From the IMG/VR virus record IMGVR_UViG_2897328257_000003: a DNA stretch of 64,000 nucleotides; one strand, given 5' to 3'. The position numbers and the translations under genes were made by a program. The stretch comes from a virus. Lineage: Duplodnaviria > Heunggongvirae > Uroviricota > Caudoviricetes. Under the pieces are notes generated by a model. That model was not told where the DNA came from, did no database searches, and saw nothing but the letters and a program-made list of their open reading frames with translations. Below, one piece after another: positions 6,471 to 64,000 of this stretch; the stretch's first letter is position 1, and the number at the start of each line of letters is the position of its first letter.

Positions 6471-6549
6471 AAGTTCAATGATATTTGCTATTGAATGTAC
6501 TGTCAGTTCTGTTATATTGTGTACTCAAAGTTCACATTGTGAGGGTGAT
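6471..6549. promoter_or_regulatory. Divergent promoter/operator region of the immunity switch (repressor vs cro-like gene)
   Basis: 79-bp AT-rich intergenic region between divergent start codons, with repeated TGTAC-containing half-sites (..aatgtactgtcag..tgtgtactcaa..). Confidence 0.5.
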
Positions 6550-6816: not shown

Positions 6817-7351
6817 ACAGGTTTGTGAGGCTCTGGATGCCTGGGTATGCCGACCAGGAATGACACAGGAGCAGGCGACGATATTAATCACGGAAGCATT
6901 CTGGGCTCTGAAAGAACGCCCGAACATCGATGTTCAACGCGTCACGTTTAATGATGGCGAGGTTGATCAACGGGCGCTGGGCGTTAATCGAGTGAAGATA
7001 TTCGAACGCTGGAAGGCTATCGACACCAGGGATAAGCGTGAAAAATTCACGGCGCTGATTCCGGCAATTATGGAGGCTATCCGGGTAAGTGATTTCAGGT
7101 TGTATTGTGAAATTACTGACGGAAAAAGCATTACGTACATGATCGCCGGGTTAAACAAAGAGTATGGCGATGTGGTGGAGTCCGGGCTGCTTTTTGCGGA
7201 TCCAGTTGTTGTGGAACGTGAGACTGATGAGCTTATAGAAAAAGCCATTGCTTTCAAGCGTGCGTATCGTCAGCAATACCAACATTACTTTGCAGATAAA
7301 CAAATATCTGTCTGGGGTTCGTATGAGTATCGATGCACTACGATGGGCTAA
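6800..7351 (+). CDS. YdaT-like protein (Rac ydaT family as recalled; proposed CII-analogue/toxic protein)
   Basis: 183 aa overlapping the end of the ydaS-like gene; segment ..DKREKFTALIPAIMEAIRVSDFRLYCEITD.. resembles YdaT. Confidence 0.6.
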   Translation: MKITPEQVCEALDAWVCRPGMTQEQATILITEAFWALKERPNIDVQRVTFNDGEVDQRALGVNRVKIFERWKAIDTRDKREKFTALIPAIMEAIRVSDFRLYCEITDGKSITYMIAGLNKEYGDVVESGLLFADPVVVERETDELIEKAIAFKRAYRQQYQHYFADKQISVWGSYEYRCTTMG

Positions 7352-8360
7352 AAAGGTGAAAACCGGCAGTTCATCCAGTAAGTCAGTATTGACCTGGCTT
7401 GCTGATATGTGCGGTGCCGATTTGTGCGCATACCCGTCTATATCTGCACTGGCAGAAGTAACGGAACTGAACAAAAAGACTGTGCAGGACAGTTTACGAC
7501 ACCTGATGGAGATTGGGTTAATTGTTGATACTGGTGAGAGAAAAGGCAGAACAAAGCAAATTGTGGTGTACCGACTTATCGGTGTAGAAGAAAGTGTTGC
7601 CGAGCCTGAATACACCCAAAAACGGGAGTCTTTAAAGGTGGGTAAAATTGGTACTGTTAATAAAAATAGTACCGAAAATGGTTATGTTTCAGCACAAAAC
7701 AGACCCAAAAACGGAACTCTTAGCTGCATGGAAAATAACCAAAGACACCCAAATTTTCCATCAAAGACACCCAAAAACGGATCACGGAACCCAAAGGAAC
7801 CCAAAGATCTAAACCCCACACATAACGCACGCGAGAGTGCTCCGACCAGTGAGCAGGAAGTTTTGTCGTTACAGGCAGCGCCCCCTGTATTCTTGGATGG
7901 CCTGAGCGAACCCATCGGGAAATTTTCGATGACTACTGTCTGGCAGCCGTCGCTGGATTTTCGACAACGGGCAGTAGTGTGGGGTATGGCTCTGCCTGAG
8001 CCGGAATTTACACCTGCAGAGCTTGCCGCATTCCGGGATTACTGGATGGCGGAGGGGAAGGTTTTCACGCAGGTTCAGTGGGAGCAGAAATTTGCCCGTC
8101 ACGTGCAGCACGTCAGGGCACAGGTAAAACCAGTCAGCAAGGGGGTAAGCCATGCAGCATCAGGTGGCACGGCATCACGGGCAGTTCAGGAAATCCGGGC
8201 AGCACGCGAACAGTGGGAACGTGAAAACGGATTTATCAGCAACGGAAACGGCCTGGAAGCTGTGGGAGCTTATGGGGGAGGTGTATTCGAACCGCTGGAC
8301 TCAGAAGAATGGGGCCGCACCTTCGAAGCTCTGGATTGCCCAGATTGGTGCGATGACTGA
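7323..8360 (+). CDS. Replication initiation protein: N-terminal winged-helix DNA-binding domain, low-complexity linker, C-terminal DnaT-like domain
   Basis: C-terminal ..GKFSMTTVWQPSLDFRQRAVVWGMALPEPEFTPAELAAFRDYWMAEGKVFTQVQWEQKFAR.. closely parallels E. coli DnaT as recalled; iteron-like repeats inside the linker-coding DNA. Confidence 0.7.
   Translation: MSIDALRWAKKVKTGSSSSKSVLTWLADMCGADLCAYPSISALAEVTELNKKTVQDSLRHLMEIGLIVDTGERKGRTKQIVVYRLIGVEESVAEPEYTQKRESLKVGKIGTVNKNSTENGYVSAQNRPKNGTLSCMENNQRHPNFPSKTPKNGSRNPKEPKDLNPTHNARESAPTSEQEVLSLQAAPPVFLDGLSEPIGKFSMTTVWQPSLDFRQRAVVWGMALPEPEFTPAELAAFRDYWMAEGKVFTQVQWEQKFARHVQHVRAQVKPVSKGVSHAASGGTASRAVQEIRAAREQWERENGFISNGNGLEAVGAYGGGVFEPLDSEEWGRTFEALDCPDWCDD
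7650..7810. repeat. Putative prophage replication origin: AT-rich palindrome followed by iteron-like direct repeats inside the replication gene
   Basis: GGTACTgttaataaaaatAGTACC palindrome; repeats gacccaaaaacggaac (7702-7717) and cacccaaaaacggatc (7768-7783), agacaccca x2, ggaacccaaag x2; analogous to lambda ori within O. Confidence 0.45.
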
Positions 8361-8814
8361 ACAGCAAATCCGTCTGGTCTGCCGTCAGTGCATGGACCGC
8401 TGCCGGGCGGGTGAAACGTGGCCCCCGGACCTGGCTGAGTTTGTTGCGCTGATTTCGGAGAGTGGGGCAAATCCATTTGGTCTTACGGTGGATGCCGTGA
8501 TGGAAGAGTACCGGCGCTGGCGCAATGAATCCTGGCGATACGACGGGAGTGATAAATACCCGTGGCCACAGCCTGTGCTGTACCACATCTGCCTCGAAAT
8601 GCGTACCAGAGGGATTGAGCGCCAGATGACGCAGGGTGAGTTAAAACGACTTGCGGAACGGCAACTGACGAAATGGGCAAAGCATGTTGGTAACGGGATG
8701 AGTGTTCCGCCAGTGCGACGACAACTGGAAGGGGCGAAACACCCGAAAGGGCCAACGCCAATTGAACGGCTGAAACAGGAATACGAACGCCGGAAGGCTG
8801 CTGGTTTTATTTGA
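8152..8814 (+). CDS. Lambda P-like replication protein (DnaB helicase loader family)
   Basis: 220 aa; strong RBS AAGGGGG before ATG 8152; ..TWPPDLAEFVAL.. and ..YPWPQPVLYHICLEMRTRGIERQMTQGELKRLAERQL.. parallel lambda P; overlaps the previous ORF by ~209 nt in another frame. Confidence 0.7.
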   Translation: MQHQVARHHGQFRKSGQHANSGNVKTDLSATETAWKLWELMGEVYSNRWTQKNGAAPSKLWIAQIGAMTEQQIRLVCRQCMDRCRAGETWPPDLAEFVALISESGANPFGLTVDAVMEEYRRWRNESWRYDGSDKYPWPQPVLYHICLEMRTRGIERQMTQGELKRLAERQLTKWAKHVGNGMSVPPVRRQLEGAKHPKGPTPIERLKQEYERRKAAGFI

Positions 8815-10329: not shown

Positions 10330-10698
10330 ATGACTGAATTAACAAAAGAGCAATTAATCAAAGAAGCCAAATTAAAAATAGCGGTTGCGAAATGTTACCC
10401 TAATTCAGAGATGGCCAGGGTAGAGGGAGAGCTATTCAAAATTGCACTGGCATCGCTGGAGGCGGTTCCGGTGGCATGGCTGCATTCAGACAATGGCCTG
10501 GGTATTCCAGCAATAACCAGGAGTAAAAACGTTGCTGATAGTTGGTTATCAAAGGGCTGGTATGTTCAGCCGTTATATGTAGCCCAACCTGTACCGGTGG
10601 TGCCGGATGCTCGTCCATCTTTAAATAATGGCATTGTCGGATTTGATGAAGGCTGGAATGCCTGCCGGGATGCCATGCTTAATGGAGATAAATCATGA
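10330..10698 (+). CDS. Hypothetical protein (122 aa), first gene of a coupled three-gene module; C-terminal ..EGWNACRDAML.. motif
   Basis: ORF after a 150-bp AT-rich intergenic region with promoter-like sequence and a hairpin just before the start; stop overlaps the next start (ATGA). Confidence 0.6.
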   Translation: MTELTKEQLIKEAKLKIAVAKCYPNSEMARVEGELFKIALASLEAVPVAWLHSDNGLGIPAITRSKNVADSWLSKGWYVQPLYVAQPVPVVPDARPSLNNGIVGFDEGWNACRDAMLNGDKS

Positions 10699-38500: not shown

Positions 38501-41500
38501 NNNNNNNNNNNNNNNNNNNNNNNNNNNNNNNNNNNNNNNNNNNNNNNNNNNNNNNNNNNNNNNNNNNNNNNNNNNNNNNNNNNNNNNNNNNNNNNNNNNN
38601 NNNNNNNNNNNNNNNNNNNNNNNNNNNNNNNNNNNNNNNNNNNNNNNNNNNNNNNNNNNNNNNNNNNNNNNNNNNNNNNNNNNNNNNNNNNNNNNNNNNN
38701 NNNNNNNNNNNNNNNNNNNNNNNNNNNNNNNNNNNNNNNNNNNNNNNNNNNNNNNNNNNNNNNNNNNNNNNNNNNNNNNNNNNNNNNNNNNNNNNNNNNN
38801 NNNNNNNNNNNNNNNNNNNNNNNNNNNNNNNNNNNNNNNNNNNNNNNNNNNNNNNNNNNNNNNNNNNNNNNNNNNNNNNNNNNNNNNNNNNNNNNNNNNN
38901 NNNNNNNNNNNNNNNNNNNNNNNNNNNNNNNNNNNNNNNNNNNNNNNNNNNNNNNNNNNNNNNNNNNNNNNNNNNNNNNNNNNNNNNNNNNNNNNNNNNN
39001 NNNNNNNNNNNNNNNNNNNNNNNNNNNNNNNNNNNNNNNNNNNNNNNNNNNNNNNNNNNNNNNNNNNNNNNNNNNNNNNNNNNNNNNNNNNNNNNNNNNN
39101 NNNNNNNNNNNNNNNNNNNNNNNNNNNNNNNNNNNNNNNNNNNNNNNNNNNNNNNNNNNNNNNNNNNNNNNNNNNNNNNNNNNNNNNNNNNNNNNNNNNN
39201 NNNNNNNNNNNNNNNNNNNNNNNNNNNNNNNNNNNNNNNNNNNNNNNNNNNNNNNNNNNNNNNNNNNNNNNNNNNNNNNNNNNNNNNNNNNNNNNNNNNN
39301 NNNNNNNNNNNNNNNNNNNNNNNNNNNNNNNNNNNNNNNNNNNNNNNNNNNNNNNNNNNNNNNNNNNNNNNNNNNNNNNNNNNNNNNNNNNNNNNNNNNN
39401 NNNNNNNNNNNNNNNNNNNNNNNNNNNNNNNNNNNNNNNNNNNNNNNNNNNNNNNNNNNNNNNNNNNNNNNNNNNNNNNNNNNNNNNNNNNNNNNNNNNN
39501 NNNNNNNNNNNNNNNNNNNNNNNNNNNNNNNNNNNNNNNNNNNNNNNNNNNNNNNNNNNNNNNNNNNNNNNNNNNNNNNNNNNNNNNNNNNNNNNNNNNN
39601 NNNNNNNNNNNNNNNNNNNNNNNNNNNNNNNNNNNNNNNNNNNNNNNNNNNNNNNNNNNNNNNNNNNNNNNNNNNNNNNNNNNNNNNNNNNNNNNNNNNN
39701 NNNNNNNNNNNNNNNNNNNNNNNNNNNNNNNNNNNNNNNNNNNNNNNNNNNNNNNNNNNNNNNNNNNNNNNNNNNNNNNNNNNNNNNNNNNNNNNNNNNN
39801 NNNNNNNNNNNNNNNNNNNNNNNNNNNNNNNNNNNNNNNNNNNNNNNNNNNNNNNNNNNNNNNNNNNNNNNNNNNNNNNNNNNNNNNNNNNNNNNNNNNN
39901 NNNNNNNNNNNNNNNNNNNNNNNNNNNNNNNNNNNNNNNNNNNNNNNNNNNNNNNNNNNNNNNNNNNNNNNNNNNNNNNNNNNNNNNNNNNNNNNNNNNN
40001 NNNNNNNNNNNNNNNNNNNNNNNNNNNNNNNNNNNNNNNNNNNNNNNNNNNNNNNNNNNNNNNNNNNNNNNNNNNNNNNNNNNNNNNNNNNNNNNNNNNN
40101 NNNNNNNNNNNNNNNNNNNNNNNNNNNNNNNNNNNNNNNNNNNNNNNNNNNNNNNNNNNNNNNNNNNNNNNNNNNNNNNNNNNNNNNNNNNNNNNNNNNN
40201 NNNNNNNNNNNNNNNNNNNNNNNNNNNNNNNNNNNNNNNNNNNNNNNNNNNNNNNNNNNNNNNNNNNNNNNNNNNNNNNNNNNNNNNNNNNNNNNNNNNN
40301 NNNNNNNNNNNNNNNNNNNNNNNNNNNNNNNNNNNNNNNNNNNNNNNNNNNNNNNNNNNNNNNNNNNNNNNNNNNNNNNNNNNNNNNNNNNNNNNNNNNN
40401 NNNNNNNNNNNNNNNNNNNNNNNNNNNNNNNNNNNNNNNNNNNNNNNNNNNNNNNNNNNNNNNNNNNNNNNNNNNNNNNNNNNNNNNNNNNNNNNNNNNN
40501 NNNNNNNNNNNNNNNNNNNNNNNNNNNNNNNNNNNNNNNNNNNNNNNNNNNNNNNNNNNNNNNNNNNNNNNNNNNNNNNNNNNNNNNNNNNNNNNNNNNN
40601 NNNNNNNNNNNNNNNNNNNNNNNNNNNNNNNNNNNNNNNNNNNNNNNNNNNNNNNNNNNNNNNNNNNNNNNNNNNNNNNNNNNNNNNNNNNNNNNNNNNN
40701 NNNNNNNNNNNNNNNNNNNNNNNNNNNNNNNNNNNNNNNNNNNNNNNNNNNNNNNNNNNNNNNNNNNNNNNNNNNNNNNNNNNNNNNNNNNNNNNNNNNN
40801 NNNNNNNNNNNNNNNNNNNNNNNNNNNNNNNNNNNNNNNNNNNNNNNNNNNNNNNNNNNNNNNNNNNNNNNNNNNNNNNNNNNNNNNNNNNNNNNNNNNN
40901 NNNNNNNNNNNNNNNNNNNNNNNNNNNNNNNNNNNNNNNNNNNNNNNNNNNNNNNNNNNNNNNNNNNNNNNNNNNNNNNNNNNNNNNNNNNNNNNNNNNN
41001 NNNNNNNNNNNNNNNNNNNNNNNNNNNNNNNNNNNNNNNNNNNNNNNNNNNNNNNNNNNNNNNNNNNNNNNNNNNNNNNNNNNNNNNNNNNNNNNNNNNN
41101 NNNNNNNNNNNNNNNNNNNNNNNNNNNNNNNNNNNNNNNNNNNNNNNNNNNNNNNNNNNNNNNNNNNNNNNNNNNNNNNNNNNNNNNNNNNNNNNNNNNN
41201 NNNNNNNNNNNNNNNNNNNNNNNNNNNNNNNNNNNNNNNNNNNNNNNNNNNNNNNNNNNNNNNNNNNNNNNNNNNNNNNNNNNNNNNNNNNNNNNNNNNN
41301 NNNNNNNNNNNNNNNNNNNNNNNNNNNNNNNNNNNNNNNNNNNNNNNNNNNNNNNNNNNNNNNNNNNNNNNNNNNNNNNNNNNNNNNNNNNNNNNNNNNN
41401 NNNNNNNNNNNNNNNNNNNNNNNNNNNNNNNNNNNNNNNNNNNNNNNNNNNNNNNNNNNNNNNNNNNNNNNNNNNNNNNNNNNNNNNNNNNNNNNNNNNN

Positions 41501-63845: not shown

Positions 63846-64000
63846 AATGCGCATACATAAAAATCACTTAACAAACATGCCAGCCGAATACATGAATCAG
63901 GGGCGACAAATGACCCAAAAACGCAGAGACAGAACAGAGCCAAAATATAAAGCGTTAGACATGACTGAGCACACCTTAAAGGTGGCAATCAGAACGATAG
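63846..64000 (+). CDS. Hypothetical protein, 5' partial view (runs off the window end)
   Basis: ATG 63846 preceded by GAGGGGGGG; open frame to the window end (MRIHKNHLTNMPAEYMNQGRQMTQKRRDRTEPKYKALDMTEHTLKVAIRTI..). Confidence 0.35.

Follow-up and report, generated by a model that had tools for sequence, protein, structure and literature searches.

We analyzed a window of 64,000 nucleotides (64 kb; the whole stretch of DNA presented above, IMG/VR record IMGVR_UViG_2897328257_000003 of the Caudoviricetes), which is 100% identical to a prophage of Escherichia coli S19-141, and focused on the junction between its two replication genes, namely gene 1, which encodes a replication initiator or replisome organizer, and the following gene for a helicase loader of the lambda P family (P). 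In our judgment, this junction is very likely a genuine, ancient, and evolutionarily conserved dual-coding region, in which P begins at ATG 8152, well inside gene 1, and specifies a protein with a lambda P-type layout. The overlap is considered real because it is conserved across enterobacteria. A preliminary description of the window had proposed a two-frame overlap of 209 nt as one of two possibilities, the other being a frameshift or sequence error that lengthens gene 1 artificially, and its coordinates of 8152-8360 are exact. The open reading frame (ORF) of the loader lies in the +1 frame relative to gene 1 and is open after TAA 8146-8148. With this geometry, a gene 1 codon takes up the third position of one P codon and the first two positions of the next, which leaves no site that is synonymous in both frames; thus, variability by position reveals which frame is constrained.

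Conservation and selection in the two frames

Homologous loci were gathered from phage records, from genomes of E. coli, and from a single genome for each species. After the removal of duplicates and of four exceptional loci (L045, L048, L038, and L046, described below), 43 distinct loci were kept, with P identities of 42-100%, from Escherichia, Salmonella, Citrobacter, Enterobacter, Klebsiella, Pluralibacter, Kluyvera, Pectobacterium, Serratia, Rahnella, Rouxiella, Yersinia, Erwinia, Samsonia, Buttiauxella, Dryocola, and Limnobaculum. A scan of IMG/VR for diverse loci gave only relatives that were 96-100% identical, and these were therefore left out of the evolutionary tests. In every one of the 43 loci, an ATG at residue -1 to 10 (window numbering) is followed by an open P frame, and gene 1, whose frame relative to P is unchanged, terminates at P residue 58-82, which gives an overlap of 149-227 nt with a median of 212. 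No stop codon occurs in the P frame among 1430 codons inside the overlap, compared with 145 among 4300 codons just upstream (0.034 per codon), and the gene 1 frame likewise has none among the 1731 codons of its tail, compared with 301 among 5590 downstream (0.054 per codon). For a single sequence this openness is unremarkable, since at 0.034 stops per codon the chance of finding 67 open codons upstream of ATG 8353 is about 0.1; it is the comparative data that make it significant. When the gene 1 protein is given and its synonymous codons are random, the joint probability of an open P frame is about 10^-4.4 (23 loci). The preliminary proposal of a genuine long overlap is thus upheld by the openness of both frames, the retained ATG, and the P-frame selection described next.

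The sliding-window diversity of the aligned loci switches from gene 1-dominated to P-dominated variability within a few codons (Table 1). Upstream of about 8225, the third positions of gene 1 are the most variable, with gene 1-phase periodicity over 8165-8219, and from about 8237 the third positions of P are the most variable, in a pattern that continues unbroken into the non-overlapping part of P. The switch lies 116-128 nt upstream of the RefSeq start at 8353 and is also upstream of ATG 8272. Between E. coli and Klebsiella phage Kp4865-4, the peptide SNRWTQKNGAAPS withstands six substitutions, all of which are silent in P and non-synonymous in gene 1. Codon periodicity and conservation in both frames had been suggested as a check on the overlap, and the phase switch supports dual coding. 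In P residues 35-67, which begin with the motif AW.LW (35-39), the residues W38, W49, K52, N53, G54, P57, and W61 are invariant, and M41 and R48 are nearly so. The P-phase selection together with these conserved residues indicates that P begins upstream of about 8240, which excludes a start at 8353 and makes one at 8272 unlikely. It had also been claimed that homology to P appears before 8272; this holds within the P subfamily, as seen from AW.LW and W38, but not for direct matches to lambda P or its Pfam profile, which start only at residue 58-69.

The start codon data point in the same direction. The calculated duplex energies of the Shine-Dalgarno (SD) sites in the window are -11.8 kcal/mol for ATG 8152, -6.1 for ATG 8272, and -3.1 for ATG 8353, with a background median of -2.5. 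An SD of -6 kcal/mol or stronger precedes the 8152-equivalent ATG in 93% of the 43 loci, where the gene 1 frame has a conserved Gly-Gly or Lys-Gly at the SD, and this is the only ATG that is both upstream of the AW.LW motif and present in every locus. These comparisons favor ATG 8152, with its AAGGGGG ribosome-binding site, as the probable start, as had been suggested from the window alone.

To what extent the gene 1 tail is constrained beyond P was assessed with 16 representatives that share less than 70% identity in P residues 30-135, by keeping the P proteins fixed and redrawing their synonymous codons. The observed gene 1 tail peptides are more alike than the simulated ones (z 7-8), with z values of -0.5 to 1.5 in three downstream control blocks. 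Only 4 stops were observed in the tail vs 26 expected, and those four are natural earlier ends of gene 1; the control blocks contained 35-46 stops vs 25-48 simulated. The excess similarity and the avoidance of stops indicate that the tail of gene 1 is preserved as an open frame, under a mild constraint beyond what P imposes. In the reverse test on P residues 6-29, z was 12.6, and no stops were found vs 2.6 expected from gene 1. The controls of this test were anchored on the invariant QWEQK motif; a first set of upstream controls was misaligned by indels (gene 1 identity 0.21-0.26) and was discarded. Within the overlap, purifying selection is detectable in both frames.

Nevertheless, several observations count against this picture or limit it. 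The diversity of P at four-fold sites is only slightly lower in the overlap (0.52 vs 0.63, p 0.11), and the corresponding values for all P third positions are 0.47 vs 0.58 (p 0.019). This small drop in synonymous diversity means that the sequence of the gene 1 tail is under mild constraint, most of which may amount to the avoidance of stops. An orphan locus of Erwinia, in which the gene 1 frame is closed upstream, still has a similar tail peptide, and part of the apparent conservation of the tail motif is a by-product of P conservation. The reverse test is only partly controlled, with z values of 5.4 and 1.1 for the anchored controls, which makes the excess conservation of the P N-terminus the weaker result, and P residues 1-26 are poorly conserved and predicted to be disordered. 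At the sequence level, the similarity to lambda P begins only at loader residue 58-82. The Prokaryotic Genome Annotation Pipeline (PGAP) of RefSeq uses 8353 in every E. coli genome inspected, which yields a protein of 153 aa and an 8-nt overlap, ATGACTGA. Finally, we infer the actual use of 8152 as the start from sequence comparison.

Predicted structures and layout of the overlap

The designation of the second ORF as lambda-P-like, made in the preliminary description, agrees with a Pfam match of the 220-aa protein to PF06992 (Phage_lambda_P; E 1e-15, 58.3 bits with a cut-off of 26), which covers aa 58-187 and profile positions 31-161 of 162. With phmmer, loader residues 69-192 align with residues 81-202 of lambda P (PDB 8v9t, E 0.0028), and NCBIfam holds no model for the loader in its long or short form. 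A comparison of the family alignment with the single lambda P sequence in hhalign reached a probability of 92% for residues 82-191 only; because of this limited range it cannot settle the loader N-terminus, and structure comparison was used instead. An AlphaFold2 (AF2) model of the 220-aa ORF, built on the 43-sequence alignment, has disordered residues 1-26 followed by helices at 25-45, 47-53, 59-67, and 70-85, with a predicted local distance difference test score (pLDDT) of about 84 from residue 30. Its best PDB matches in Foldseek come from 9oa1, the complex of DnaB with lambda P; the lambda P chains in it align over 202-210 columns, and the identity in the structural alignment is about 17-18%. 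Lambda P consists of four domains, namely the intrinsically disordered domain I (1-29), domain II (about 30-119), domain III (about 120-192), and domain IV (193-233) (PMC12661323). As modeled, the 220-aa ORF reproduces this four-domain layout.

The two protein models fit each other along the shared DNA. The last helix of gene 1 (aa 286-301) is, in the other frame, the disordered domain I of P (aa 1-26), and the disordered tail of gene 1 overprints the P helices within residues 25-67. The first P helix starts at nt 8224 and the gene 1 helix ends at nt 8225, which is the place of the codon-phase switch. According to the models, the structured segment of one frame overlies the disordered segment of the other in both directions, so that the low-constraint segment of each protein covers the structured segment of its partner. 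We propose that the loader would be translated independently from ATG 8152 by means of the SD AAGGGGG inside gene 1. Its first 26 or so residues, a predicted disordered "lasso" forming domain I, would share their DNA with the last helix conserved in the initiator, and the final 41 or so residues of the initiator, a predicted disordered acidic tail, would share theirs with the first three helices of domain II of the loader.

Alternative starts and the length of gene 1

Public databases hold the identical gene as a protein of 220 aa (e.g., ASZ41149.1, 71 contigs), 180 aa (626 contigs), or 153 aa (536 contigs, the RefSeq WP form), and the module is carried by 1254 of 5426 complete genomes. In Salmonella, Klebsiella, Citrobacter, Brenneria, and Pectobacterium, the start chosen by NCBI corresponds to 8272 and the protein has 180-181 aa; one set of GenBank phages uses a still later ATG (140 aa), and other records and gene callers give loaders of 216-223 aa. 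Judged by the sequence data, the reference annotations appear to begin the loader 40-67 codons too late, which amounts to a systematic start-site error. The RefSeq form of 153 aa is without about 67 residues, and half of a folded domain is among them; studies of the structure or function of this loader family that rely on that model would concern a truncated protein.

It is unlikely that the loader starts at ATG 8272 (M41), which would leave an overlap of 89 nt and make 8152-8271 open but untranslated. Such a start would agree with the many entries of 180-181 aa, with a start codon at M41 in 41 of the 43 loci and a moderate SD (median -5.5 kcal/mol), and with the disorder and variability of residues 1-26. 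However, the AW.LW motif with its invariant W38 lies upstream of M41, P-phase periodicity is present already from about 8237, the predicted helix 25-45 spans M41, and lambda P domain II begins at about residue 30; moreover, the loci of Buttiauxella and Dryocola have no start codon at 41, and the open frame upstream offers a conserved ATG with a far stronger SD. The RefSeq choice, in which P runs from ATG 8353, is coupled to the termination of gene 1 through ATGACTGA, and owes its upstream openness to the composition of gene 1, is very improbable. It is the choice of PGAP throughout E. coli, ATGA[CG]TGA is conserved in the Escherichia-Klebsiella-Enterobacter clade, and the hidden Markov model match to lambda P begins near there, but residues 41-67 rank with the best-conserved ones of the family and substitutions in them are silent in P, the start codon is missing in 9 of the 43 loci with an SD at background level, and NCBI itself starts earlier in other genera. 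A start at 8353 had been named in the preliminary description as a finding that would speak against the overlap; in the AF2 model it would remove domain I and half of domain II, including three helices, and with them nearly invariant residues. A related possibility, compatible with dual coding from 8152, is that two isoforms exist, a full-length loader from 8152 and a truncated one from 8353 produced by termination and reinitiation at ATGACTGA. ATGA-type junctions commonly support translational coupling, and the loci of the E. coli-Klebsiella clade have the ATG in exact overlap with the gene 1 stop; on the other hand, this arrangement is not conserved in more distant loci, where M68 can be L, and the short product has only half of domain II. 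We regard the second isoform as rather unlikely.

A sequencing error or mutational frameshift near 8150-8200 as the cause of the long gene 1 is hardly credible. The G5 run at 8141-8145 would provide a site for it, as the loss of one G would bring TAA 8146-8148 into the gene 1 frame and end the gene three bases short of the P start. Against this, the frame and stop of gene 1 are the same in 43 of 43 loci and in an alignment of 22 protein homologues whose identity falls to about 50%, and all full-length homologues share the acidic C-terminus D[WR]x[DN][DE]*. In addition, gene 1-phase periodicity continues downstream of the G run, as does the conserved helix 286-301, and TAA 8146 is not conserved in relatives. 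A gene 1 that ends before the P start was found neither in the 43 loci nor among the full-length protein homologues, and no homologue ends near 8150-8180. The openness of both frames in all loci and the shared C-terminus of gene 1 thus refute the frameshift or artefact that the preliminary description had offered. The G5 run may in its own right be a hotspot of phase variation or error. We also set aside a programmed frameshift (of the dnaX or G-GT type, or +1 at the G run), as P possesses a conserved SD and ATG of its own and TAA 8146 is not conserved; a passage from gene 1 into P would need a +1 shift, and no search aimed at conserved slippery motifs was made. Dual coding with P from 8152 is accordingly the reading that we follow below.

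Relation to lambda and other systems, modularity, and further features

The window pair resembles lambda O and P in gene order, with the initiator followed by the loader in an early rightward operon after cro-like and regulatory genes, and in the presence of repeats within the initiator gene, which are iteron-like in the window. The loader shares the Pfam family and the four-domain layout with a disordered N-terminus, and its model aligns with lambda P over about 205 columns. In contrast, the shared stretch is only 4 nt long (39582-39585) for lambda O and P and 209 nt, out of frame, for the window genes. The window initiator is also not O-like: it combines a weak HTH_36 (helix-turn-helix, HTH) match with a DnaT domain, its protein has no PF04492 (Phage_rep_O) match in a Pfam scan, and its C-terminus has no similarity to lambda O by BLASTP. 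With E. coli DnaT, it shares the central domain (PF17948, PRK02854), and this domain is the only part that matches; gene 1 additionally has a predicted winged-HTH N-terminus, a linker bearing the iteron-like repeats, and the C-terminal helix and tail. Lambda O's C-terminal domain recruits lambda P. By analogy, the C-terminal helix and tail of the window initiator may recruit the loader or the loader-DnaB complex.

The comparison of loci also suggests that the junction travels as a unit. E. coli prophages with differing gene 1 N-termini (e.g., DUF1376) share the part from about 7803, which contains the DnaT domain, helix, tail, and P. In distant loci, Phage_rep_O, HTH_36/DnaD_N, DUF1376, or domains that were not recognised take the place of the DnaT domain, and the helix, tail, and P stay; the helix motif is kept even where the remainder of gene 1 is of another type. 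A prophage of Klebsiella sp. BIGb0407 (L027:1573-2676) has an initiator with a lambda-O-type N-terminus (Phage_rep_O, E 7e-27) that ends in the same helix and tail and overlaps P by 209 nt, the corresponding overlap in lambda itself being 4 nt. The overlap would hold the interacting parts together as one "helix + tail + P" cassette that recombines with different initiator DNA-binding domains. We speculate, tentatively and by analogy with the C-terminal domain of O and the N-terminal part of P in lambda, that the overlap could be a specificity lock, in which the helix and tail of the initiator and the lasso and first helices of the loader recognise each other. If so, because both surfaces are encoded by the same 210 nt or so, mosaic lambdoid recombination would never separate a loader from its matching initiator tail. 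The lock would then explain why the cassette is attached to at least four unrelated initiator DNA-binding domains. Alongside it, a further layer of regulation may come from a second isoform of the loader that starts at ATG 8353.

Overprinted phage gene pairs include Rz/Rz1 of lambda and A/B/K of phiX174, and the overlapped parts tend toward disorder or low constraint. As in these cases, one stretch of DNA encodes two proteins in different frames. However, the present overlap is a terminal one between adjacent, partnered replication genes, without an embedded gene, and unlike in those pairs each gene contributes one structured and one disordered segment. It would be a clean and ancient case of reciprocal overprinting between two partner proteins in a double-stranded DNA phage, and it suggests how the specificity of initiator and loader persists despite rampant module shuffling. 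A full-text literature search found no description of the overlap, although such absence is no proof of novelty, and the Eru-type paper (PMC8044961) mentions neither DnaT nor the overlap. The two genes can be separated by point mutations: T8153C would abolish the P start and leave gene 1 unchanged, and G8277T would truncate gene 1 and leave P unchanged.

Table 1 Positions of the features discussed, in window coordinates (aa, amino acids; CDS, coding sequence)
Feature	Position	Strand	Basis or details
YdaT-family gene	6800-7351		
Gene 1, replication initiator / replisome organizer, 345 aa	7323..8360	+	ATG 7323, TGA 8358-8360; RefSeq CDS WP_033885211.1, coordinates equal
Iteron-like direct repeats in gene 1 linker, candidate origin	7609..7805	+	Repeat search
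DnaT DNA-binding domain of gene 1, aa 201-267	7923..8123	+	Pfam PF17948, E 3e-16; AF2 pLDDT 72-84; gene 1-phase codon periodicity
SD AAGGGGG for the P-like gene, inside gene 1 codons (..KG..)	8139..8145	+	Anti-SD duplex -11.8 kcal/mol
Lambda-P-family helicase loader ORF, 220 aa, proposed true CDS	8152..8814	+	ORF; PF06992; AF2/Foldseek; ATG conservation
8152-equivalent start			Start codon (ATG) in 43/43 loci; median SD -10.7 kcal/mol
Dual-coding overlap, 209 nt	8152..8360	+	Gene 1 frame and P frame (+1) both open
Conserved gene 1 helix, aa 286-301, RAVQEIRAAREQWERE	8178..8225	+	AF2; gene 1-phase periodicity 8165-8219
Codon-phase variability switch, gene 1-dominated to P-dominated	8225..8237	+	Sliding-window diversity, 24 aligned loci; also 43 loci
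Gene 1 C-terminal tail, aa 305-345, glycine-rich, acidic, predicted disordered	8235..8357	+	AF2 pLDDT 29-36
Internal ATG (M41), start in 180-aa annotations	8272..8274	+	Start codon in 41/43 loci; median SD -5.5 kcal/mol
ATGACTGA, RefSeq/PGAP start of "replication protein P" (M68), overlaps gene 1 stop	8353..8360	+	Start codon in 34/43 loci; median SD -3.1 kcal/mol

The description of gene 1 as DnaT-like, given earlier, is confirmed by the PF17948 match in Pfam. The NCBIfam DnaT model PRK02854 (positions 82-156) matches gene 1 aa 194-269 partially, with 91 bits vs an equivalog cut-off of 201, and the HTH_36 match is weak (20.2 bits, under the cut-off of 25). In the AF2 model, gene 1 consists of a winged-helix part (aa 3-85), a disordered linker (aa 89-194), and the DnaT domain (aa 200-267), followed by the helix at aa 286-301 and the disordered tail at aa 305-345. 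The linker contains the repeats, with copies of ACCCAAAAACGG[AG] at 7614, 7703, and 7769 and the shorter repeats CAAAGACACCCAAA and GGAACCCAAA besides. The 13-mer has no other copies with 0-1 mismatches in that region, and one further copy with 1 mismatch occurs at 63913 in the 64 kb window. These repeats lie in the predicted disordered linker and encode P[KE]NG peptide repeats, which are also found in homologues, and extra copies form a 21-aa insertion in some gene 1 homologues (e.g., Enterobacter). By analogy with lambda O, the repeats are probably the phage origin.

The early rightward operon runs from divergent promoter-like sites at about 6480-6520 through a cro-like HTH gene, the YdaT-family gene, gene 1, and the lambda-P-like gene to a DUF1627 gene. 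The YdaT-family gene overlaps the start of gene 1 by 29 nt (7323-7351), and the SD of gene 1 is weak (-5.4 kcal/mol). Further downstream, the ORF at 10330-10698 is intact in the window (122 aa), and RefSeq has two short pseudogene fragments there (L004:6008-6519), one of which carries the label "valyl-tRNA synthetase, incomplete", which looks doubtful.

Among the four exceptional loci, that of Leclercia adecarboxylata NCTC13032 (L045) has a P frame that is broken near residue 69, its N-terminal part continuing in another frame, which is a frameshift mutation or an assembly error in the record, and that of Symbiopectobacterium (L048) is a degraded copy. The other two are intact orphan P-like genes of Erwinia (L038:2426-3052 and L046:2474-3043; 208 and 189 aa) without an initiator or prophage context, and they start upstream of the AW.LW motif despite having no gene 1. 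They could be remnants or domesticated loaders. One of them lies between a PTS (phosphotransferase system) transporter and a LysR regulator; the other has a ttcA-like gene on one side and a dbpA-like helicase gene on the opposite side, an interval that in E. coli is the Rac attachment region.

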